A DNA stretch of 11,885 nt from a virus: the IMG/VR virus record IMGVR_UViG_3300036766_000644, positions 176,685 through 188,569 of that record; one strand, 5' to 3'. Below are positions 761 through 9,088 of this stretch, piece by piece. The translations under genes were made by a program, and so were the position numbers. The notes under the pieces were generated by a model. That model searched no databases. It was not told the origin of the DNA and worked only from the letters and a program-made list of their open reading frames with translations. Every line of letters starts with the position of its first letter. Position 1 is the first letter of the stretch.

Positions 761-1339
761 TTAGTAAATCGGGCTCATGCTGATCTTGTAGACGACTTCC
801 AGCGTCTGCGTTGTCGTCTGTGTTTTTGGCGGAGTTAGCAGGGCGTATGCGAGGACCCCGCGCGCCATGTTGTACGGGAGAGACTCATTGACGCGCAGAA
901 CGAAAATTGTTCCGAGCGTACGGTTGTTGGCCGGAGTCCCGAAGGTCGTCGACACCGTCTTGGTGTGTGTCACTGAGTTGTTGGACGGCGTCAAGTTCCC
1001 TGACGAGAAAATCTGCGTGCTGTCGCCAATCAACGCAGATCGGCGAGGATCGGGCGCCTCTGTAGAGGCGCAGAAGCCGACCTGGATGTAGTAGAAGCGC
1101 ATGTCCATCCATGCGAAGCGCCCGAAGTCCGTGATGAGATTGTTGTCTGCGTGCGTCCAAGCGACTTCTCCAGATTCGGCATCACGCGCGGTGATCTCAA
1201 AGGAGCCTTTAAGCTCGAGGTCCCCCGCCAAGACCAGCTTTGGGTTCATCCGCTTCGGAGGAACTCGTCCCGCGCGAAGATGAGTGAGCATCGCCTCAGC
1301 TTCATCCGGACTGAACGTGCTCACTTTGTAGTCGCTCAT
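761..1339 (-). CDS. Hypothetical protein, possibly tail-associated. ATG at 1339-1337 overlaps the TGA of the upstream fiber-like gene (ATGA). The ORF track extends it to a GTG at 1369.
   Basis: Open frame with protein-like composition. GAGGA 4 nt upstream of the ATG. ATGA overlap with the upstream stop suggests translational coupling. TAA stop at 761-763. Confidence 0.5.
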   Translation of the reverse strand: MSDYKVSTFSPDEAEAMLTHLRAGRVPPKRMNPKLVLAGDLELKGSFEITARDAESGEVAWTHADNNLITDFGRFAWMDMRFYYIQVGFCASTEAPDPRRSALIGDSTQIFSSGNLTPSNNSVTHTKTVSTTFGTPANNRTLGTIFVLRVNESLPYNMARGVLAYALLTPPKTQTTTQTLEVVYKISMSPIY

Positions 1340-3114
1340 ATGATCCTCGTCGTTCCTGCCTGTGTCCACGTACCTACTCCATCGGCATTACCTGTTCCAC
1401 CAGGGCCGCCAGCGCCATCCCCGAGGAGGTTTGTATCAGGGTCCTGCGTGGAAAACTTCACCGGGGAACGGTTAACGTAGGTGATGTCGCTGTCTTGCGG
1501 GTCCCTCTGGGCACCACCCTCTCCTAAGAGACCGGAATCAGCCACATCACCATCACGTCCAAAATCCCACCGGGCGTCTCCAACCAGAAATCCTTCGTTG
1601 AAGCGGTCGTAGATGACCAGGGACATCACATCGGTGAGCAAGCCTCCCGGGAGGAGAGCCCTCACGAAATAGCCACGTCCATAGACGCGCGTCGCGATAG
1701 GTATGAAATACGTACCTCTGTCCGAATCGTAAATCGGAGTGGTGAGTTGAGCTGTAGCTCCGCCCTCGATCCGATATGCAACGTACCCCGCCATCTGTGT
1801 GTTTTTGGGTCCGAAGACAATTCCGAATCCGTCGGGAGACGGTCTCGTGACGAACGCGATAGATGGTGTGTCAGGGGATCCACTGGTAAACGTGCCCTGA
1901 TCCCCGGCGCCTTCTCCTACAAAATTTGTATCAGGGTCCGTGAACCCGATCTTCACTGGCTGCCGGTTGACGTACGTGAAATCGTCGATCAGTGGATGTC
2001 GCTGCCCTGCGCCTTCGCCCAGGCGTCCGCCGTCGACGTTGTCGAGGACCTTGATGATGCCGCCGGTGTCCGCGGTAAACGGCATGTTGATGGTCGCAGG
2101 GTCGTCCGTGCTGTTGGCGGTCAACTTGTAGATGCGATTCCCGGCGAAGAAGAAGACGTACAGCGTGTCCGCAGCCGCATCGTAGAGAAGTTCAGGGCGC
2201 CCTGTGTTGGAGGAGTTCCCGCCACCAGGGGTGGTCAGCCGCGTCTCCGAACCGAACTGCCCGAAGGGGCTCTCCTTTACCACGTAAAGATCGCGGTCCC
2301 GCTCGACGCACCACCACCGTACGCCTGAGCCCATCTCGTAGGATGAGAGCGAGACGACGTTGTCCGTCGCAGTGAGTTTGGTCGTCGCAGAACGTAGGGC
2401 CGCCTGGTAGTAGGCAGCGATCAGATACGGCTGCTTCGCTCGAGCGACGTTGTGCACGGAGACTTCGTCGACGAGGCCGTCCCAGAACGCAGAGTCGGCG
2501 ACACGCTGCAACCGGCCCACGCTGAACACGGCAGACGCGTTCGCGGCGGGAGGCGGTACTGGAAGGGCCGACGGAGACCCGTTCACGGTGACGGAGGTAG
2601 CTGGTACCAGTGCGTTGTCGAGGTAGATCTCGACGTCTTGGTTCCCGCCGTTCGCCACGCGCCGAACGGCGACGGAGTAGAATTGGTTCGTCTTGATGGT
2701 TCCTACCGCCGTCGTCACCAACACTTCGCCCGCCGCGGCCGTGTGCCGGTATTCCAGAGCCCCGTTGTTCTTCACGGAAAGGGCGTACAACACGCCGTCA
2801 CCGGTCGTGGGCCCCGCGCATGAGACGAAGCAGCGAAGGAAAGAACCCGTCGTATTGACCGAGGTGAGTCTGAACCAGCCGATGAGGGCCAGGTCACCGG
2901 TGAGGCGGAGCGCTGAACTGGTGATCGCCGCGAACGACGAGGTACCGTTCATTCCTCGAGCGCCGCCAACGCGCCCCAAGGTCGCGGAGGACGCGTTGGT
3001 GACCGTCAGGTGTAAAGCATTCGCTGTTGCATCGCGCGCAGCGTCAGTTTCCAGAGCTTCATCGAAGCCCCAGTACCCGATGAGGTTGGCGTCGAGCGTC
3101 AGCCGAACAGCCAC
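1336..3114 (-). CDS. Putative tail fiber / receptor-binding protein. N-terminal concanavalin-A/LamG-like region, then an internal duplicated ~45-aa Gly/Asp-rich domain. Apparent GTG start.
   Basis: 592-codon ORF. G-rich RBS-like tract (GGCGGGGGTG) before the GTG at 3114-3112, 3 nt after the upstream TGA. Internal repeat GEGAGQRHPLIDDFTYVNRQPVKIGFTDPDTN versus GEGGAQRDPQDSDITYVNRSPVKFSTQDPDTN, visible at DNA level as the shared 15-mer tttgtatcagggtcc at 1429-1443 and 1925-1939. Confidence 0.6.
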   Translation of the reverse strand: MAVRLTLDANLIGYWGFDEALETDAARDATANALHLTVTNASSATLGRVGGARGMNGTSSFAAITSSALRLTGDLALIGWFRLTSVNTTGSFLRCFVSCAGPTTGDGVLYALSVKNNGALEYRHTAAAGEVLVTTAVGTIKTNQFYSVAVRRVANGGNQDVEIYLDNALVPATSVTVNGSPSALPVPPPAANASAVFSVGRLQRVADSAFWDGLVDEVSVHNVARAKQPYLIAAYYQAALRSATTKLTATDNVVSLSSYEMGSGVRWWCVERDRDLYVVKESPFGQFGSETRLTTPGGGNSSNTGRPELLYDAAADTLYVFFFAGNRIYKLTANSTDDPATINMPFTADTGGIIKVLDNVDGGRLGEGAGQRHPLIDDFTYVNRQPVKIGFTDPDTNFVGEGAGDQGTFTSGSPDTPSIAFVTRPSPDGFGIVFGPKNTQMAGYVAYRIEGGATAQLTTPIYDSDRGTYFIPIATRVYGRGYFVRALLPGGLLTDVMSLVIYDRFNEGFLVGDARWDFGRDGDVADSGLLGEGGAQRDPQDSDITYVNRSPVKFSTQDPDTNLLGDGAGGPGGTGNADGVGTWTQAGTTRII

Positions 3115-3117
3115 GGG

Positions 3118-3594
3118 TCACACCCCCGCCTGGACGTAGGTTCCGCCGCGCTCTTTGAAGTTGGGCTCTGTGGTCTGGTTGAGGTGATCTTGGTGCACTA
3201 CTGACGCGTACTTCTCGGCGAAGAAGAGACTGGCACGGTAACGCTTGGACCAGGCGTCACCGCTGGCCATGATCGTAACATCTGCCCGCCTCACATCGTC
3301 GAACCAGAAGGCCTGCGCCTGAAACAGGCCGCCCCCTGCGGTATCAAAGGGGAACCAGAGCTCGGGGTCTCGCGTGGAGAGCTCGAGCGTGTCGGCGTCG
3401 GCTCCAAGCTCTACGCCCACCGAGGCCACAGCCCCGTTGGTCTTCTTCTGGAGACGGAGGAACACTCCAGCGCCGTTCGTCAAGATGACGTCGTGCGCAC
3501 TGAGTTCTCGGGCTAGTGTCAGCCCGACCGAATCCATCAGAAACGACTTGAGCGCGCTGTAGAAAAGCAGAACGCTGTCGAAGGTTTCGTTCAT
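3118..3594 (-). CDS. Hypothetical protein (MNETFDSVLLFYSALK...). The track ORF starts at TTG 3633; ATG at 3594-3592 with a GGAG RBS is preferred.
   Basis: GGAG, 5-nt spacer, then ATG at 3594. TGA stop at 3118-3120 lies 3 nt before the fiber-gene GTG. Composition is protein-like. Confidence 0.5.
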   Translation of the reverse strand: MNETFDSVLLFYSALKSFLMDSVGLTLARELSAHDVILTNGAGVFLRLQKKTNGAVASVGVELGADADTLELSTRDPELWFPFDTAGGGLFQAQAFWFDDVRRADVTIMASGDAWSKRYRASLFFAEKYASVVHQDHLNQTTEPNFKERGGTYVQAGV

Positions 3595-3664
3595 TGCGTC
3601 TCCACGGTGGACCGCCAGAGTATAGGCGAACAACCCCTAGAGGCGCGGCATGAAATGAGGGGCT

Positions 3665-3720
3665 GGGTTCTCGAGACTCCGTAGCACGTCAGTGCCCAAC
3701 CATCAACGCCTCGAGAACCC
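3665..3720. repeat. 11-bp inverted repeat GGGTTCTCGAG ... CTCGAGAACCC with a 34-nt spacer containing a nested 4-bp hairpin (gcac gtca gtgc). Lies in the 164-nt intergenic region between two minus-strand genes.
   Basis: Read directly from the sequence. The arms are at 3665-3675 and 3710-3720. Confidence 0.6.
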
Positions 3721-3758
3721 GCGGAGGTGCCCTCTACCTTGGCCCGCGCTCAGCTTTT

Positions 3759-4010
3759 CTACTCCACTGGACTGAAGTCGACCCAGTACGTCTTGCCGAT
3801 GACGAACTGGTTGTACGCATCCGGGTTGGTGATCGTCAGTCGCAGCTCTCCGCTCGGGGTCCACTTCGACCACTCACGGTTCGCTTTGTCGTCTTCTCCG
3901 CCGTACACCGGCATCAGTGTTACTTCCACTGCTTCCAGCATCCCGGTGCTTGTGCAGACGCTGATGTTCTCTGCTCTCCGCGTGACGCGGCACTTCGCTC
4001 TTACGGGCAT
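3759..4010 (-). CDS. Hypothetical small protein (83 aa, MPVRAKCRVTRRAENISVCTSTGMLEAVEV...).
   Basis: ATG at 4010-4008 and TAG at 3759-3761. Composition is protein-like, whereas the overlapping plus ORF 3727-4290 is Ser/Arg-rich junk. Lies between the hydrolase gene and the intergenic inverted repeat. Weak RBS. Confidence 0.35.
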   Translation of the reverse strand: MPVRAKCRVTRRAENISVCTSTGMLEAVEVTLMPVYGGEDDKANREWSKWTPSGELRLTITNPDAYNQFVIGKTYWVDFSPVE

Positions 4011-4057
4011 TGTGCTACCTGATGTGAGGGCCGCTTACCGCTCGTCCCTTGTCCACC

Positions 4058-4618
4058 TCAGTCGTGAGTGTAGAACAGGAGGTTCTGGATTGCACCGAAA
4101 CCCTTGCTCAGGTCCTGGTCGAAGAAGTTGTTCGCACCAGCCTGGGCGATGTGGCAGAAGTCCGTGCCAGGCAGCACGACCGCGACGTGCCCGATCCCGC
4201 CGGGGTTCTTCCAGACGACCACGGAGGGGAGTCCTTTGGAGGCGCGCTCCATTGCCTTGCTCTTCCCACACTGCATCCAGCCGAACTTAGAAGAGTGCGT
4301 GGCGAACCAGTCGCAGACGCCGTTGGCAGACAACTCCTTGCCCTTCCCACGAGGAACTTCAACGCCGGTCGCCGGGTCAACCCAGTGGGGAACCTCGCAG
4401 CTCATGGCGACGGTGACGTCCCAGAGGTAAATGTTGCAGTAGGTCTCCTGCCCGTTGGCGGGATTCCCGTCATGGCCCCGAACGTATCGAGGATTCGTCT
4501 CCACCTCGAACTGTTTGGCCGCGGCTACGTAGTTCGCTGGGGATCGGTCGCTCAACGGGATCGTCAGGTCGGGTGTCACTTCTTCCCATGCGGCGGGGTT
4601 CTTCATGGAGGGGTTCAT
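4058..4618 (-). CDS. Putative peptidoglycan hydrolase of the papain-like Cys-His type (NlpC/P60 or CHAP-like amidase/peptidase). Candidate endolysin or virion-associated lysin.
   Basis: 186-aa ORF with candidate catalytic Cys in ETYCNIYLWDVT and His in GIGHVAVVLPG about 85 residues downstream; this order and spacing are typical of CHAP/NlpC-P60 enzymes. ATG at 4618-4616 lies one nt after the stop of the upstream glycine-zipper gene. Confidence 0.45.
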   Translation of the reverse strand: MNPSMKNPAAWEEVTPDLTIPLSDRSPANYVAAAKQFEVETNPRYVRGHDGNPANGQETYCNIYLWDVTVAMSCEVPHWVDPATGVEVPRGKGKELSANGVCDWFATHSSKFGWMQCGKSKAMERASKGLPSVVVWKNPGGIGHVAVVLPGTDFCHIAQAGANNFFDQDLSKGFGAIQNLLFYTHD

Positions 4619-4619
4619 G

Positions 4620-5249
4620 TCACTTGCTCGCTGTGAGGGACGGAGGGGCGCCGGGGGCCTTCATGGGTTGCACCACCGGGGGAGGAACCTTCGGCATCGT
4701 GTACTTCATCGCGGCTCCCGTGGCGATGGGAACCGCTGCGAGGGCGATCCGCATGTACTTCGCTACCTCAGGGCTCAGGAAGTCGAACCCTGCTTCCTTC
4801 TCATCCCCGCGAGAAAGGAAGTGGTGGGCCAGGCTCGCAGCAAGCGCCGTCGCTCCGATAGCTGCTGCTGCCCCGGGAGCGTACTTCCTGATCGCACCGG
4901 CGCGACCACTCTGCGTCAGCATCTTGTGGACCTTGTGGACGGCGGCTTGGCCGAGACCTGCGCCGGTAGCCCCACCGGCTAGTCCGCCGCCAGCTCCGCC
5001 CAGGATGAACCCCCCGATTCCTCCCGTCACTCCGAGGAGGCCAGGATGCCGGCCCCCCCACGCGGCACCCCCCAGTCCGCCAGCCCCCAGCCCAGCGATC
5101 CCTCCGGCCAGCCCGCCAGCCGCTCTCGCAGCGATGGGCGTCTGCGTCGGCTGAAGGTGTTCCCACAGCTTCGCCGCTCTGTCGGCGTAGTCGGCCTCTT
5201 TGATGAATGTCTCGCGAGCCTCTCGGGCTCCGGCAGCGTAGAAGTCCAT
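4620..5249 (-). CDS. Glycine-zipper-rich putative membrane protein (GGLAGGIAGLGAGGLGGAAWGG...GGIGGFILGGAGGGLAGGATGAGLG). Holin-like candidate or virion membrane-active protein.
   Basis: 209-aa ORF. The overlapping 217-aa ORF in another frame (4801-5454) is Arg-rich junk. Lies directly 5' of the hydrolase gene with a 1-nt gap. GxxxG repeats are typical of membrane helices. Confidence 0.5.
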   Translation of the reverse strand: MDFYAAGAREARETFIKEADYADRAAKLWEHLQPTQTPIAARAAGGLAGGIAGLGAGGLGGAAWGGRHPGLLGVTGGIGGFILGGAGGGLAGGATGAGLGQAAVHKVHKMLTQSGRAGAIRKYAPGAAAAIGATALAASLAHHFLSRGDEKEAGFDFLSPEVAKYMRIALAAVPIATGAAMKYTMPKVPPPVVQPMKAPGAPPSLTASK

Positions 5250-5264
5250 GGCGGCAGTATAGGC

Positions 5265-5471
5265 TTACTTTCCGCCCTTCAACATCTCCGCCGGAACCGC
5301 GAGCATGTTGTAGATGGCGTCCTTCTGGTGCTGGAAGTACTCGTCTAGCTCGAAGTCTGGAACGTAGGACGCAGATCCGAAGAGACAAGCACCGTCGGGC
5401 ATGTGGTGCTCCCGGATAGCCCAGCAACTTCGGCAGGGGATGTTGAGGACCCATTTCGCAGTGAGCTTCAA
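5265..5471 (-). CDS. Cys-motif small protein, paralog 1 (CRSC-x6-HHMPDGAC-LF). TTG start overlapping the stop of paralog 2 (TTGA).
   Basis: GGAGGA RBS 7 nt upstream of the TTG at 5471-5469. Shares the CxxC...H.D..C.F motif with four neighbouring genes. TAA stop at 5265-5267. Confidence 0.5.
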   Translation of the reverse strand: MKLTAKWVLNIPCRSCWAIREHHMPDGACLFGSASYVPDFELDEYFQHQKDAIYNMLAVPAEMLKGGK

Positions 5472-5671
5472 AAGAGGATCCTCCGGAGCAGTGAGTCGCT
5501 GTAGGGCTCCAACACCGCTGGCTTGTAGAACTGGAACAACGCCGAGTTGACCCGCTCCACTGTGAGCCCTGTTATCGCCGCGAAGTTGCTCGCCTCAAAA
5601 GGGCACTTCTCATCGACGTGGTGCTGGTACTGCTTTCGGCAGTTGGAGCAGCGGGTGGTTGGGGTGGTCAC
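5468..5671 (-). CDS. Cys-motif small protein, paralog 2 (CSNCRKQYQHHVDEKCPFEASNF). GTG start at 5671-5669 overlapping the stop of paralog 3 (GTGA). The track extends it to 5848, inside paralog 3.
   Basis: AGAAGGTG RBS 5 nt upstream of the GTG. The GTGA stop/start overlap was read directly. The N-terminal extension in the track would overlap the paralog 3 coding sequence by 180 nt. Confidence 0.5.
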   Translation of the reverse strand: MTTPTTRCSNCRKQYQHHVDEKCPFEASNFAAITGLTVERVNSALFQFYKPAVLEPYSDSLLRRILF

Positions 5672-5904
5672 TTGTACACCTTCTTGAATCCCCATACGCC
5701 GCCGAAGGTAGCCGTGATGGCGCCGCTCGCCGGGGGCAGGGGCGCTGGGACGAAAGGTATCCGCTCCAGGCTGGCTTCGAAGTTGGACGCTTCGAAAGGG
5801 CACTTCTGGTCGATGTGCACGGTGCCCGGCTTCCCGCAGTTGAGGCACTCCGACGTAGGGTCAGGGACGAATGACTCTTCGAGAGTCGATCCGGTGTCGT
5901 TCAT
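5668..5904 (-). CDS. Cys-motif small protein, paralog 3 (MNDTGSTLEESFVPDPTSECLNCGKPGTVHIDQKCPFEASNFEAS...). ATG overlaps the stop of paralog 4 (ATGA).
   Basis: Strong RBS AAGGAG with a 5-nt spacer before the ATG at 5904-5902. About 30 nt of near-identical DNA shared with paralog 2 (aagttg.ncgc.tc.aaagggcacttct..tcga.gtg). Confidence 0.55.
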   Translation of the reverse strand: MNDTGSTLEESFVPDPTSECLNCGKPGTVHIDQKCPFEASNFEASLERIPFVPAPLPPASGAITATFGGVWGFKKVYK

Positions 5905-6092
5905 TTCTTCTCCTTGTCTTTGGGCTCTTCTACGTAGCACTTGATCGTCTGCTTCAGCACGCTGATGCCCCCGGGCTTGAACTCCGAGGAGTCGAAGAGG
6001 CACTTCTTGTCGAGGTGCTGCGTGTAGTCCTTACCGCAGTTGGCGCAGGTCCGGCGCATCACCGGCATCCTGAGCTTGTACTCTTTGCTCAC
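5901..6092 (-). CDS. Cys-motif small protein, paralog 4 (CANCGKDYTQHLDKKCLFDSSEF). GTG at 6092-6090 overlaps the upstream stop (GTGA); the alternative ATG at 6068 gives MPVMRRTCANC.
   Basis: Motif conserved. Start codon ambiguous, with no clear SD for either candidate. Confidence 0.45.
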   Translation of the reverse strand: MSKEYKLRMPVMRRTCANCGKDYTQHLDKKCLFDSSEFKPGGISVLKQTIKCYVEEPKDKEKK

Positions 6093-6367
6093 GGGTCCGT
6101 GACGCCCATGATCCGACCATCCCCCTGCCAGTCTTTGTACTCGAGCGTGTACTCCACCGGGCCATTCTGCTTGTAGCCTTGTGCCCTGCTGCTGGGTTCG
6201 TCGCTGCTGTAGATCGGGTCCAGTTGTCGGTTGAGGCTCCAGTTCAGGTTCTTGCCGAACCCGTCGGGATTCTTTGCGTCCATGAGCACCTGCTCTGTGT
6301 GGTGCCCCGTCTCCAAGTCTTCTACGGTGAGGGTGATCTGAAGCCGTACTACTTTCTGCGTCGTCAT
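6089..6367 (-). CDS. Hypothetical protein (92 aa, MTTQKVVRLQITLTVEDLETGHH...) inserted between paralogs 5 and 4. It lacks the Cys motif.
   Basis: ATG at 6367-6365 preceded by AGGGG. Its TGA stop overlaps the start of paralog 4. Confidence 0.45.
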   Translation of the reverse strand: MTTQKVVRLQITLTVEDLETGHHTEQVLMDAKNPDGFGKNLNWSLNRQLDPIYSSDEPSSRAQGYKQNGPVEYTLEYKDWQGDGRIMGVTDP

Positions 6368-6375
6368 TTTAACCC

Positions 6376-6645
6376 CTATACGGTGAAGGTGAGCCCCATG
6401 TACTGAATCGTCTTCTTAACGCGGATCTTCATGTCCACGTGAACCTTGTCCCCGTCGGTGACGGTGTTGTCTTCTTCGATGACTCTCTCGCAGCTGCAGT
6501 CCAGGTGGTCGTTGACCGTCTCTTCGCGGTACTGCGTAAAGTCGAAGAGGCAGGCCCCATCGACATGGGCTTCCTTCGGCTTCCGGCAGTTGCCGCAGCG
6601 CCCCTTCTCGACCGTGTGAACCAGGTCCTTCTGGATGGAATGCAT
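6376..6645 (-). CDS. Cys-motif small protein, paralog 5 (CGNCRKPKEAHVDGACLFDFTQY) with an extra C-terminal extension containing DCSC. Probably the first gene of the leftward operon, and possibly leaderless.
   Basis: ATG at 6645-6643. The track start at 6687 is a TTG with no RBS. A TAnnnT element (TACTCT) lies 6 nt upstream of the ATG. Confidence 0.45.
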   Translation of the reverse strand: MHSIQKDLVHTVEKGRCGNCRKPKEAHVDGACLFDFTQYREETVNDHLDCSCERVIEEDNTVTDGDKVHVDMKIRVKKTIQYMGLTFTV

Positions 6646-6719
6646 GGGCGCAGAGTACCCGCGTTCGGAGGGAAAAAGCAACGCCAAATTAGGGTATCAG
6701 TAGTTGAAGGGCCCACACC
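6646..6719. promoter_or_regulatory. Divergent control region. Candidate leftward sigma-70-like promoter (TTGCTT, 18-nt spacer, TACTCT, 6 nt to ATG 6645) overlapping rightward promoter-motif copy 1 (aaattagggtatcagtagttgaagg, 6686-6710, 10 nt before ATG 6720).
   Basis: Hexamers read from the reverse complement of 6652-6681. Motif copy 1 is the most degenerate of the seven copies. Confidence 0.35.
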
Positions 6720-7094
6720 ATGACTACACTGAAATCCTTCCTCAACGGAGCTCGTAGAAACGCCTACATCAAGTACCCGGGCTTCAATTTTATGTACGTC
6801 CGACACACCAAGCGGTTCGGTATCGAAGTGATCGACCTCGCCAACCTGGAGGCGAAGGAACCTGGGCGGGGTTCGTTCGCCCGCCTGGTCAAGCACATAC
6901 GTAAGACGTACCCCCACTTGGGGATCTACGTCGAGTGCGTGCTGAACGAACGGTTCGAAGGCAAGTTGCTCGCAATGGGATTCACCCGTTGCGACGTCGG
7001 AATGAGCGCATGCTTTTACCTCTCACCGGAGATGGAGCTGAATGATCAAACCAGTCAAAGAAGCCCTCAACGAAGTTCTATGGAACCTGCGTGA
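6720..7094 (+). CDS. Small GNAT-family N-acetyltransferase-like protein (124 aa).
   Basis: Segment IEVIDLANLEAKEPGRGSFARLVKHI resembles GNAT motif A (R/Q-x-x-G-x-G/A, acetyl-CoA pyrophosphate loop). VLNERFEGKLLAMGFT resembles motif B (N..A..lYek.GF). The 3' end overlaps the next gene by 53 nt in another frame. Confidence 0.4.
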   Translation: MTTLKSFLNGARRNAYIKYPGFNFMYVRHTKRFGIEVIDLANLEAKEPGRGSFARLVKHIRKTYPHLGIYVECVLNERFEGKLLAMGFTRCDVGMSACFYLSPEMELNDQTSQRSPQRSSMEPA

Positions 7095-7380
7095 GGGGCA
7101 GGCCGTAGTAGGCGTCAAGCGTGACAAGTGGATAGCCCTCATCGAGGCTATCCTGCTGGACGCCGAAGAGAATGAGAAGCTCTTCGTCGATACGAAGATG
7201 CGGCTGATGCGTAACCGCTATTCACTCGAAGAGGTGAAGCAGATTGCAAAGGAGTACGCTGCAACCATCGGCGGAACGCAGTTCGGGCGAACCCGGACGG
7301 ACGTGGAAGACGAAGAAGACTGCAGGCGGAACCTCGAGCGTGTGATCCTCGAAGTGACGGAGAAGAGGACGCTTGGCTAA
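7042..7380 (+). CDS. Hypothetical protein (112 aa, MIKPVKEALNEVLWNLREGQAVVG...).
   Basis: Two GGAG boxes 4 and 10 nt upstream of ATG 7042. Composition is protein-like. TAA stop at 7378-7380. Confidence 0.5.
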   Translation: MIKPVKEALNEVLWNLREGQAVVGVKRDKWIALIEAILLDAEENEKLFVDTKMRLMRNRYSLEEVKQIAKEYAATIGGTQFGRTRTDVEDEEDCRRNLERVILEVTEKRTLG

Positions 7381-7594
7381 ACCGAAACAAGACGACCTTT
7401 CCAGGCGCCGTAGGCTCAACAAGGGCCAGTGCCCGACCCACGGAACAGGGCTCGAGCAAATCGGAGTTGCGACGAACCAACAGGGGATTCCTTTCGGGGA
7501 CACGCTCGCGTGCCCCCGGAAGGACTGTGACTTCTGGACGGAAGTCCGACCCGGAACTAAGCTTTGGGAGGTGCTGCGGTCAAGCGGTGGGTGA
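7373..7594 (+). CDS. Small basic zinc-finger-like protein (73 aa; CPTHG...ACPRKDC, KPKQDDLSRRRRLNK N-terminus). Possible DNA-binding regulator. TTG start overlaps the upstream stop.
   Basis: AGAGGA then a 3-nt spacer before the TTG at 7373. ORF ends just before the hairpin/T-run region. The C-x2-H ... C-x4-C spacing suggests a metal-binding knuckle. Confidence 0.4.
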   Translation: MAKPKQDDLSRRRRLNKGQCPTHGTGLEQIGVATNQQGIPFGDTLACPRKDCDFWTEVRPGTKLWEVLRSSGG

Positions 7595-7600
7595 CCGGCA

Positions 7601-7725
7601 TTCCTGAGTACTTGTTCTGTTCGTCCGGGTACTCAGTAACAACTACCGCAGTGGGGGTCTCGGGGACAGCTGCACCTCCCCCCGGGAGACCTCACCGTCT
7701 GGCCCACGAAACGGGCTTGTTTTTT
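7601..7725 (+). terminator. Cluster of stem-loops ending in a T-run: ttcctgagtac[17]gtactcagtaa at 7601-7639, ggtctcgggg...ccccccgggagacc at 7656-7691, then gcccacgaaacgggc followed by ttgtttttt at 7699-7725. Probable end of the first rightward transcription unit.
   Basis: Inverted repeats read directly from the sequence. The T6 run merges into promoter-motif copy 2. Confidence 0.35.
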
Positions 7726-7743
7726 GGGTATCAGTCTTTGAGC
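7716..7743 (+). promoter_or_regulatory. Promoter-like motif copy 2: cttgttttttGGGTATCAGTCTTTGAGC.
   Basis: One of seven direct copies of the conserved motif. Lies 24 nt upstream of ATG 7767. Confidence 0.5.
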
Positions 7744-8410: not shown

Positions 8411-8427
8411 TGGGAGACCCTAAAAGT

Positions 8428-8456
8428 GATCATTTTTAGGGTATTAGACTTTGAAC
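8428..8456 (+). promoter_or_regulatory. Promoter-like motif copy 3: gatcatttttaGGGTATTAGACTTTGAAC.
   Basis: Conserved motif. Lies 21 nt upstream of ATG 8477, which has an AAGGAG RBS. Confidence 0.5.
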
Positions 8457-8476
8457 CCTTACAAAGGAGTTACATC

Positions 8477-9088
8477 ATGGGCTTGCCCGGGAATACCCGA
8501 ACCGTAACGAATCAGTCGGCCACCTGCGAGCAGGAGAACTGCTTCCGAAAGGCGGTGATCCGTCTGCAGGGGGAGACGGACAGTTTCGGAGCTGAGTCCG
8601 CGGAGCTGTGCGAGGAGTGCTACAAGGAGGGCCTCGCGAAGGAGGCGGCCGAGCGGGCCGCTGGAACGCACTGGATGCAGTCGGCGCACTGCGACTGGTG
8701 CAAGAAGAGCGGGGTCGCGGTGTCCCACAAGCGGGACACCGACGGGGAGGGGACCAGCGGTCCGGTCTACCTCGTCTGTGACCCCTGCAGCGATCGGTAT
8801 GACGCTGCGCTCGCTGAAGAGTACCGCGCCGAGAAGCTCCAGAAGATGGGGTACTCCTCCGAGTTGGAGTACCGGTTGGCGCAGCAGGACGCAGAGGACC
8901 GCCTGTGGGAGGACGAGGATGAGGCTCGCCACATGAACTCCCTGTGGTCCCCCACCATGGCGGTGGAGTGGAAGAGGGAGGCCTTCGAGGAGGCGGTCCT
9001 CGGGTACTACTACGATCCGGATACACGGATCGACCGGCTCCACGAGGCGGCCCTCGAGGAGGCCGCTGCCCGGTCCGAGTACTACTGA
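8477..9088 (+). CDS. Acidic Cys-rich protein with four CxxC-type pairs (CEQENC, CEEC, CDWC, CDPC; probably two zinc ribbons) and a strongly acidic C-terminal half.
   Basis: ATG preceded by AAGGAG. About 43 acidic versus 23 basic residues in 203 aa. The 240-aa antisense ORF 8475-9197 is Pro/Arg/Ser-rich junk. Confidence 0.55.
   Translation: MGLPGNTRTVTNQSATCEQENCFRKAVIRLQGETDSFGAESAELCEECYKEGLAKEAAERAAGTHWMQSAHCDWCKKSGVAVSHKRDTDGEGTSGPVYLVCDPCSDRYDAALAEEYRAEKLQKMGYSSELEYRLAQQDAEDRLWEDEDEARHMNSLWSPTMAVEWKREAFEEAVLGYYYDPDTRIDRLHEAALEEAAARSEYY

Follow-up and report, generated by a model that had tools for sequence, protein, structure and literature searches.

Tiny zinc-finger proteins and multigene families of small proteins in large phages are both familiar. 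Retroviral zinc knuckles (zf-CCHC) hold their metal with the motif C-x2-C-x4-H-x4-C, as in the HIV-type sequence CFNCGKEGHxxxxC. The gyrase inhibitor YacG and the archaeal protein HVO_2753 consist of 60-90 residues around a single metal site, and YacG touches its target through a short tail. Among phage proteins, Mu Com, P2 Ogr and P4 Delta are small, have one zinc site of the C4 type with long spacers, and are encoded near the start of a late operon. Here we describe an array of five minus-strand genes, which we call A to E, in a stretch of 11,885 nucleotides (the window; positions 176,685 to 188,569 of the IMG/VR record IMGVR_UViG_3300036766_000644). Their products share a Cys/His motif of about 26 residues, hereafter the knuckle. 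An earlier note on this DNA recognised the array and missed the large, unannotated family of phage domains to which it belongs.

The array occupies positions 5265-6645 of the minus strand, where six genes are closely packed in the order A, a 92-aa gene, B, C, D and E. Gene A (6376-6645, 89 aa, ATG start) encodes a knuckle at 6544-6597 (CGNCRKPKEAHVDGACLF) and a beta-rich C-terminal part. Gene B (5901-6092, 63 aa) has its knuckle at 5994-6047 (CANCGKDYTQHLDKKCLF) and a Lys-rich tail, and its GTG start overlaps the stop codon of the 92-aa gene. Gene C (5668-5904, 78 aa) begins at the ATG within an ATGA, and its knuckle (5794-5847, CLNCGKPGTVHIDQKCPF) is followed by a tail that is first Pro-rich and then weakly hydrophobic. 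Gene D (5468-5671, 67 aa) starts at the GTG within a GTGA; its knuckle lies at 5597-5650 (CSNCRKQYQHHVDEKCPF) and a helix is predicted in its tail. Gene E (5265-5471, 68 aa) starts at the TTG within a TTGA, with GGAGGA 7 nt upstream, and its knuckle (5379-5435, CRSCWAIREHHMPDGACLF) is a variant ending in H-M-P-D-G-A-C. The four-nucleotide stop/start overlaps are exact: TTGA at 5468-5471, GTGA at 5668-5671, ATGA at 5901-5904 and GTGA at 6089-6092. All five genes, their quoted peptides and the four overlaps are thus where the earlier note had placed them. The 92-aa gene (6089-6367), which it had called non-paralogous, encodes an acidic ORFan that has neither the motif nor a BLASTP match to A-E.

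Across the family, the knuckle takes the form C-x-[N/H]-C-x6-H-x4/5-C-[L/P]-F-[E/D]-x-[S/T]-x-[F/Y/W]. The residues C, C, H, C and F were invariant in 26 and also in 120 aligned segments. The consensus of 145 distinct domains is C-x-[N/H]-C-x6-H-[V/I/L/A]-D-G-K-C-[L/P]-F-[E/D]-[A/S]-[T/S]-x-[F/Y/W]-x-P, with Asn in 72% and His in 23% of the domains at the third position. Conserved non-ligand positions are N/H3, V12, D13, G14, K15, L/P17, E/D19, A/S20, T/S21 and F/Y/W23, and about a dozen non-ligand positions are as strongly conserved as the ligands. The spacing is x2/x6/x4 in 147 of 189 domains and x2/x6/x5 in 36. Genes A-D follow the former pattern and E the latter, using its second His with five residues to the last Cys; with ligands and Phe complete in all five, each belongs to the family. 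The earlier note had allowed six to nine residues between Cys and His and had counted the Asp as part of the motif. The spacing is six in all five copies, and some orthologues have Asn or Glu in place of the Asp. When we searched the six-frame translation of the window for the pattern C..C.{6}H.{4,5}C.[FYW], five matches were found, every one in A-E, compared with a mean of 0.001 and a maximum of one match in 1000 dinucleotide-preserving shuffles of the window.

Genes A-E are true paralogues with unrelated sequence outside the motif. Nine of the ten protein pairs matched in BLASTP (E-values from 2.6 × 10−4 to 4 × 10−13), D-E being the pair without a match. The matches span about 24-30 residues, with the exception of C-D (58 residues), so both the kinship and the strong divergence outside the motif that had been proposed were borne out by the comparison. 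Paralogy had also been read from two DNA strings; as 38-mers these are identical at 31 of 38 positions, and the second lies at 5780-5817 rather than at 5771-5810.

ORFs (open reading frames) in this GC-rich DNA were selected by a filter on the difference in GC content between third and second codon positions (GC3 and GC2). In A, B and E, as well as in the 92-aa gene, GC3 was 0.78-0.90 and GC2 0.33-0.38 (0.78 and 0.38 for E alone), which is the signature of accepted genes in this window of 60% GC. Between the window and the orthologous array of a related contig, L024, the ratio of nonsynonymous to synonymous substitution rates (dN/dS, Nei-Gojobori) was 0.41 for A, 0.11 for B, 0.11 for C and 0.44 for D; it was 0.11 for the gene in the neighbouring lysin slot and 0.25-0.44 for other neighbours. 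Because of the GC3/GC2 signature and these orthologue ratios, we conclude that the array genes are real, translated in the motif-bearing frames and under purifying selection. The family had been described as diversifying. In the sense of positive selection this is not supported, as dN/dS is low among orthologues and the paralogue types are conserved; the word fits only insofar as the paralogues have nothing in common beyond the motif. For gene B, some gene callers place the start at 6059 (52 aa). The GTG start that overlaps the upstream stop is supported because the N-terminal sequence KEYKLRMPVM is kept in orthologues. Gene A has about 20 orthologues with 45-76% identity, and genes of the C type have additional phage contexts (L026, L036 and L065). 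For gene E, the only copies found were in near-identical versions of this phage.

To determine how widespread the knuckle is, we searched protein and nucleotide collections. A profile of the five proteins retrieved 30 unnamed metagenomic proteins, none with a Pfam domain. A 32-column profile of the motif, run with HMMER against 1.84 billion representatives, identified 330 clusters (at 50% identity) with E-values up to 10−3, 13 of them with E-values up to 10−10. Most of these proteins have 60-140 aa and nearly all have 60-230 aa. Their median isoelectric point (pI) is 6.1 and 65% are acidic, while the knuckle has a mean net charge of −0.5. A word-indexed protein search with the 120-sequence alignment gave nine matches and nothing beyond the HMMER set. 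The five proteins match no model in Pfam, PHROGs, NCBIfam or PADLOC and are thus not assigned to any unrelated known family there, and no PHROGs entry matches the 120 family segments. Nor was there a significant sequence match in the PDB to the motif profile, to E or to an extended-tail profile. The domain is therefore new in the sense that every curated library searched lacks an entry for it. A literature search for the spacing string, and for DUF1281/Api92, returned nothing relevant.

The family is apparently phage-restricted and was found here only in uncultured phages. In 50,697 deposited phage genomes there was no true match, either by megablast of the window or by tblastn with three motif queries. 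A degenerate DNA pattern for H-x-D-G-K-C-L-F-[D/E], which covers the commonest motif variant only, gave four matches in 185,579 bacterial and archaeal species genomes, none with the full motif. The same pattern identified 50 metagenomic loci, about 44 of them genuine and, as judged from sample accessions, mostly from freshwater sediment. In IMG/VR, the family is present in phage genomes of 36-190 kb.

Structure prediction with AlphaFold2 (AF2), using the 120 aligned segments, gave the D protein predicted local distance difference test (pLDDT) scores of 82-91 over residues 1-30 and about 91 over the motif. Short beta bridges make up the modelled knuckle together with a helical turn of three residues that immediately precedes the His; DSSP assigned this turn to residues 15-17, directly ahead of His18, and placed Cys23 in a strand or loop. 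The tail was modelled with low confidence and includes one helix. Protein A was modelled as a small beta-rich protein (mean pLDDT 78). A-type proteins also have a second conserved His/Cys set (H10 and D-H47-x-D-C50-x-C52-E), possibly a second site. A Foldseek search against the PDB gave no significant fold match (all E-values >1), and the non-significant matches are, as judged from entry names, mostly zinc-finger or zinc-ribbon chains. A metal site is the most economical reading of four invariant ligands within a confidently modelled motif, and the knuckle most likely binds one Zn2+ tetrahedrally. The ligand set points to a mononuclear Cys2-His-Cys (CCHC) site and not to HNH. The metal site suggested before is thus retained. 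Of the two types named for it, a treble clef would combine a knuckle with two ligands from the first turn of an alpha-helix; the zinc ribbon, with two CxxC/H knuckles on two beta-hairpins, does not describe these proteins.

The retroviral zf-CCHC knuckle shares with the family the order of the ligands, the C-x2-C and H-x4-C spacings, a frequent Gly-Lys after the second Cys and the tiny size. In contrast to it, the family has a middle spacer of six residues, a neutral to acidic rather than basic module, and a conserved extension of the form C-[L/P]-F-[E/D]-x-[S/T]-x-aromatic; it matches no Pfam model and is apparently confined to phages. The basic aromatic surface of the retroviral knuckle is also lacking, position 2 of the family being A, R, G or V. 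YacG and HVO_2753 are comparable in building 60-90 residues on one metal site, but they use C4 ligands with other spacings, do not form multi-copy arrays and gave no significant match; for HVO_2753 there were sub-threshold matches only (NCBIfam E-value of 0.014, Foldseek E-value of 8.8). Mu Com, P2 Ogr and P4 Delta differ in being single-copy, basic DNA or RNA binders without sequence similarity to the family in Pfam or PHROGs. Closest in habit are the lineage-specific small-protein families of large phages, with tandem paralogues, variable copy numbers, accessory locations and overlapping stop/start codons. Unlike in those families, the paralogues here share only the strongly conserved metal knuckle, which recurs in hundreds of proteins that have nothing else in common.

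Tandem arrays are the rule in the family. Half of the genuine metagenomic loci (22 of about 44) contain two to four copies within about 1 kb. Related phages have four or five copies at the same place, IMG/VR genomes have two, and unrelated contigs have three or four within about 1 kb. Four domains are found in three adjacent genes in L012, four copies lie in two places in L011, and one 187-kb genome has copies at three loci. Single chains may also contain two or three domains (P0031-34, P0037, P0042, P0045 and P0049). Fusions include a knuckle joined C-terminally to DUF1281_C, the ferredoxin-like domain of Api92-like proteins, with an extra CxxC preceding (L015:5458-6102 and L017:5419-6102, in IMG/VR genomes of 167-187 kb), and knuckles joined to two other recurrent N-terminal regions. 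In relatives of the window phage, one array member of 143-146 aa has a hydrophobic N-terminus (MNIFKLLYCALFGHKSS...), a second Cys cluster (C-x-R-C...PPPP-x-C-x-x-C...H) and a C-terminal knuckle (L008:10270-10710, L025:4312-4746 and L011:17390-17821). The tails recur in different combinations, which we grouped by eye, for example as 'PMTxEE...W', 'G-I-G-I-x-N-I-x-A-I-x-K-[IV]-Q-F' and 'IPAEML.G'. A likeness of the tail of E to a portal-protein motif was considered, had no database match and was dropped.

One subfamily has a tail that resembles part of a polymerase. Residues 40-84 of P0080 (86 aa) align with residues 542-587 of Taq Pol I (KSTYIDPLPDLIHP...TGRLSSSDPNLQNIPVR) in a search against the PDB (E-value of 2.6 × 10−4). 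P0031 and P0176 have sub-threshold matches to Pfam DNA_pol_A, the TGRLSS motif is also present in P0177, and a related TGRLAS occurs in an ORF of L026 (L026:3-257). The tail of this subfamily corresponds to the family-A DNA polymerase strip TGRLSSxxPN[LV]xNI, in short free-standing proteins and not in polymerase genes; in the polymerases it is part of a thumb-to-palm segment, KSTYxDxLP...TGRLSSxxPNLQNIP; at L012 (8001-8669) no other polymerase motifs were found nearby. None of the five window proteins contains the strip. A profile of 19 members that share the post-knuckle segment and lack TGRLSS had no polymerase match. Because this profile misses polymerases, the similarity belongs to the tail of the subfamily and not to the core, and a derivation of the whole domain from a family-A polymerase was rejected for the core.

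To place the family in its genomic surroundings, we took a Pfam census of 139 neighbouring ORFs from 16 loci. This identified genes of deoxynucleotide and DNA metabolism, namely dCMP deaminase, thymidylate synthase, ligase, helicases, PNKP, dNMP kinase and VapE, as well as Tad3, Bro-N, response-regulator receiver domains and the M15 lysins of the window lineage itself. Single look-ups of neighbours added Prim-Pol with VapE, RuvC and ribonucleotide reductase with Gad2, Tad3 with rIIB, and an AcrVA2-like protein. Homologues of anti-defence proteins lie within about 10 kb of knuckle genes in three loci: AcrVA2-like at L008:7-990 (minus strand), Tad3 at L011:9046-9426 (plus strand) and Gad2 at L026:8527-8738 (minus strand). 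Capsid, portal and terminase genes were absent from the 139 ORFs. The genomic context thus argues weakly against a structural, virion role of the family.

Within its own lineage, the array has a fixed setting. Gene for gene, the window agrees with a 30-kb Logan contig (L001), a near-identical member of the D-type cluster is present on a 188.6-kb Joint Genome Institute contig, and relatives are contigs of 100-138 kb. The leftward operon opens with an A-type gene throughout, except in L011, L031 and L069, where the hydrophobic-N-terminus type takes its place. It continues with two to four further motif genes and an endolysin slot. Behind these are encoded, in this order, a conserved protein (about 80 aa), a Laminin_G_3 protein (about 590 aa) and two more proteins, the first of 192 aa and the second of 1700-2000 aa. 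The array reads A, 92-aa ORFan, B, C, D, E in the window; A, B, C, P25-type, D in L024; A, hydrophobic-N, B, P25-type in L025; and A, hydrophobic-N, B, 101-aa type, P26-type in L008. Here, the D-like copies P25-type and P26-type take their names from P0025 and P0026, and hydrophobic-N is the 143-146-aa type, which in relatives occupies the place of the 92-aa gene; for the latter, no relatives were found beyond this phage population. Each paralogue type is kept across related phages; the variation lies in the set of types that a phage has and in the tail that goes with each.

The endolysin slot has undergone non-orthologous replacement. In the window it is filled by a 186-aa protein (4058-4618, minus strand) with Cys/His motifs and a weak, sub-threshold resemblance to NlpC/P60. 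This type is also present in L008 and L024, and a Peptidase_M15_4 protein takes the slot in L025 (5169-5660), L011 (16060-16551) and L044. The synteny, together with the M15_4 endolysin at the same slot in relatives, bears out the earlier placement of the array directly 5' of lysis and tail genes. Between array and lysin slot, the window has a Gly/Ala-rich protein of 209 aa (4620-5249, minus strand) with glycine-zipper-like stretches. It has no family match, is absent from L024 and L025, and is possibly a membrane or holin-like protein.

Upstream of the first array gene, by about 45 nt, lies a 13-mer (CTGATACCCTAAT, 6688-6700, minus strand) that is unchanged in the 22 related loci carrying it, despite diverged flanks and genes. 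Copies with two mismatches are found at two other intergenic spots of the window (7722-7734 and 8435-8447, both on the minus strand), compared with 0.1 expected, and are inverted relative to the plus-strand genes there. A scan of positions 3500-7500 found no sigma-70-like promoter, and terminator-like sites were at chance level. As judged from this conservation and placement, the 13-mer is a candidate control element and may be a phage-specific promoter or operator of the leftward operon. On the divergent arm beyond it, two plus-strand genes (6720-7094 and 7042-7380) overlap by 53 nt in different frames, and both are conserved in L024 (83% and 74% identity, dN/dS of 0.25 and 0.37).

Considering all of this, we suggest that the region holds five old paralogues in a translationally coupled cassette, in which a conserved zinc docking module is combined with variable protein-binding effector tails, and that the products are small modulators of host or phage proteins. 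We put the probability of this reading at roughly 55%. Each protein begins with the knuckle of about 26 residues and continues into a tail unrelated to those of its neighbours. The knuckle would be the common fold-and-docking module with a conserved interaction of its own, more than a staple, because its conservation reaches well beyond the four ligands. The tails, which are often acidic, would be the specific, protein-binding effector parts, free to be exchanged, duplicated, fused or lost; we infer this division of labour because the non-ligand positions of the knuckle are conserved while the tails exchange freely. Binding to proteins rather than to nucleic acids is favoured because of the acidic character of the knuckle and of most family members. 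The size, modularity, copy-number flux and neighbourhood of the genes would fit take-over, anti-defence or regulatory accessories rather than enzymes, virion parts or general nucleic-acid binders. The cassette forms the first genes of the leftward operon behind the 13-mer and would be co-transcribed with the endolysin-slot and tail-fibre-like genes.

Several observations weigh against the docking-and-effector proposal. No member of the family is tied to a function by experiment or homology, and metal binding is read from ligand conservation alone. The strong conservation of the knuckle is equally compatible with a nucleic-acid target, one subfamily has a DNA-contacting polymerase motif, and many members lie in replication modules. 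The genes of the window lineage share an operon with late-type genes (lysin and tail fibre), which is unexpected for early take-over genes, and closeness to anti-defence homologues is anecdotal for large phages. Finally, the 'IPAEML.G' tail is common to E and to D-like genes of relatives, as seen by eye only.

The chief competitor holds that these are nucleic-acid-binding zinc knuckles that regulate expression or replication, the array at its divergent promoter region controlling an early-to-late switch or the translation of the operon. Their mode of action would then resemble that of retroviral nucleocapsid knuckles or of Mu Com and P2/P4 Ogr/Delta. The ligand order and H-x4-C spacing are those of retroviral knuckles, as is apparent in copy C (CLNCGKPGTVHIDQKC); the array adjoins a conserved intergenic element; replication or nucleotide-metabolism modules house many members; and one subfamily has the DNA-contacting strip TGRLSSxxPNxQNI of family-A polymerases. 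However, the knuckle is neutral to acidic, with 65% of the proteins acidic, its middle spacing is six and not four residues, and the residue after the first Cys is not aromatic. There is no Pfam zf-CCHC match at E-values up to 1, and matches to nucleocapsid proteins in the PDB have E-values >1. Five co-expressed regulators with unrelated tails would also be hard to explain, and we regard this account as rather unlikely, though it is the one most worth keeping beside the docking-and-effector proposal. A bolder idea is that the knuckle is a universal phage carrier displaying short peptides that mimic conserved stretches of essential replication or assembly proteins, the arrays being decoy or dominant-negative cassettes directed at host defence sensors or competing phages. 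Its clearest case would be the TGRLSSxxPNxQNI-tailed subfamily, and we consider it improbable. If true, it would represent a new strategy in the arms race between phages and hosts and among phages.

Other explanations are less likely than either the docking-and-effector proposal or nucleic-acid binding. The position of the array directly before the endolysin slot across the whole lineage might suggest lysis-associated factors that tune holin or endolysin action or late membrane events, the more so as relatives have the hydrophobic-N member, and as L024 and L025 show no canonical holin between array and lysin. Yet the five window proteins have no transmembrane segment, members in other phages adjoin DNA-metabolism genes and not lysins, and a linkage seen in a single phage lineage may be inherited gene order; the chances of a lysis role seem slim. 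No better placed, in our view, is a role as virion-packaged, ejected effectors, with the knuckle as a tag for capsid or tail targeting, by which diverse tails would be loaded and then delivered in the following infection, in the manner of the T4 internal proteins, in which a targeting peptide directs packaging into the particle. A conserved module with variable cargo would suit such a tag, and late-type genes directly adjoin the array in the same orientation, but elsewhere no structural genes adjoin family members, and some members are found in early or replication arms.

Two chemical alternatives concern the site itself. Three Cys and one His are also the ligands of mitoNEET-type [2Fe-2S] proteins, and the knuckle contains H-x-D-G-x-C, so that small redox or cluster-carrying proteins with a 3Cys-1His iron-sulfur site could be envisaged. 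The CDGSH spacing is C-x-C-x8-C-x3-H, though, and neither the order nor the spacing of the knuckle agrees with the signature C-x-C-x2-(S/T)-x3-P-x-C-D-G-(S/A/T)-H; there is no Pfam match, and the tight knuckle predicted by AF2 suits a mononuclear site, which makes an iron-sulfur centre very doubtful. The earlier note had seen in CxxCGK...H-x-D a loose echo of the first half of zinc-containing HNH motifs. The likeness is superficial: no HNH family in Pfam (at E-values up to 1), PHROGs or NCBIfam matches, the Asp gives way to Asn or Glu in orthologues, there is no second CxxC knuckle, conserved Asn or second His, and the models have no beta-beta-alpha element. Degenerate remnants of an HNH/His-Me-finger nuclease are therefore the least credible of the explanations considered.

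Host-takeover and anti-defence functions that are yet to be recognised reside mainly in small phage proteins, most of which resist grouping into families. Here, a conserved knuckle of 26 residues unites hundreds of otherwise unrelated mini-proteins of uncultured large phages, and its arrays, exchangeable tails and fusions provide a handle for study through one module structure, one docking partner and many tails. Should the module prove to be a docking or carrier domain, peptide display would also gain a compact natural scaffold. Should it be a mere fold-stabilising zinc site, it would still be a useful domain definition for annotating phage dark matter. The finding is a solid new domain definition and overturns nothing.

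Two further proteins of the window deserve mention. A plus-strand gene at 8426-9088 encodes a Cys-rich protein of 220 aa with the CxxC pairs CEQENC, CEECYKEG, CDWCKKSG and CDPCSD. It matches phrog_15864 (unknown function, E-value of 3.7 × 10−18) and is unrelated to the array motif. On the minus strand, at 1336-3114, the 592-aa Laminin_G_3 protein of the leftward operon contains a repeat of about 40 residues, seen twice, with the pattern ...D-x-TYVNR-x-PVK-x-x-x-x-DPDTN-x-x-G-[ED]-GAG...

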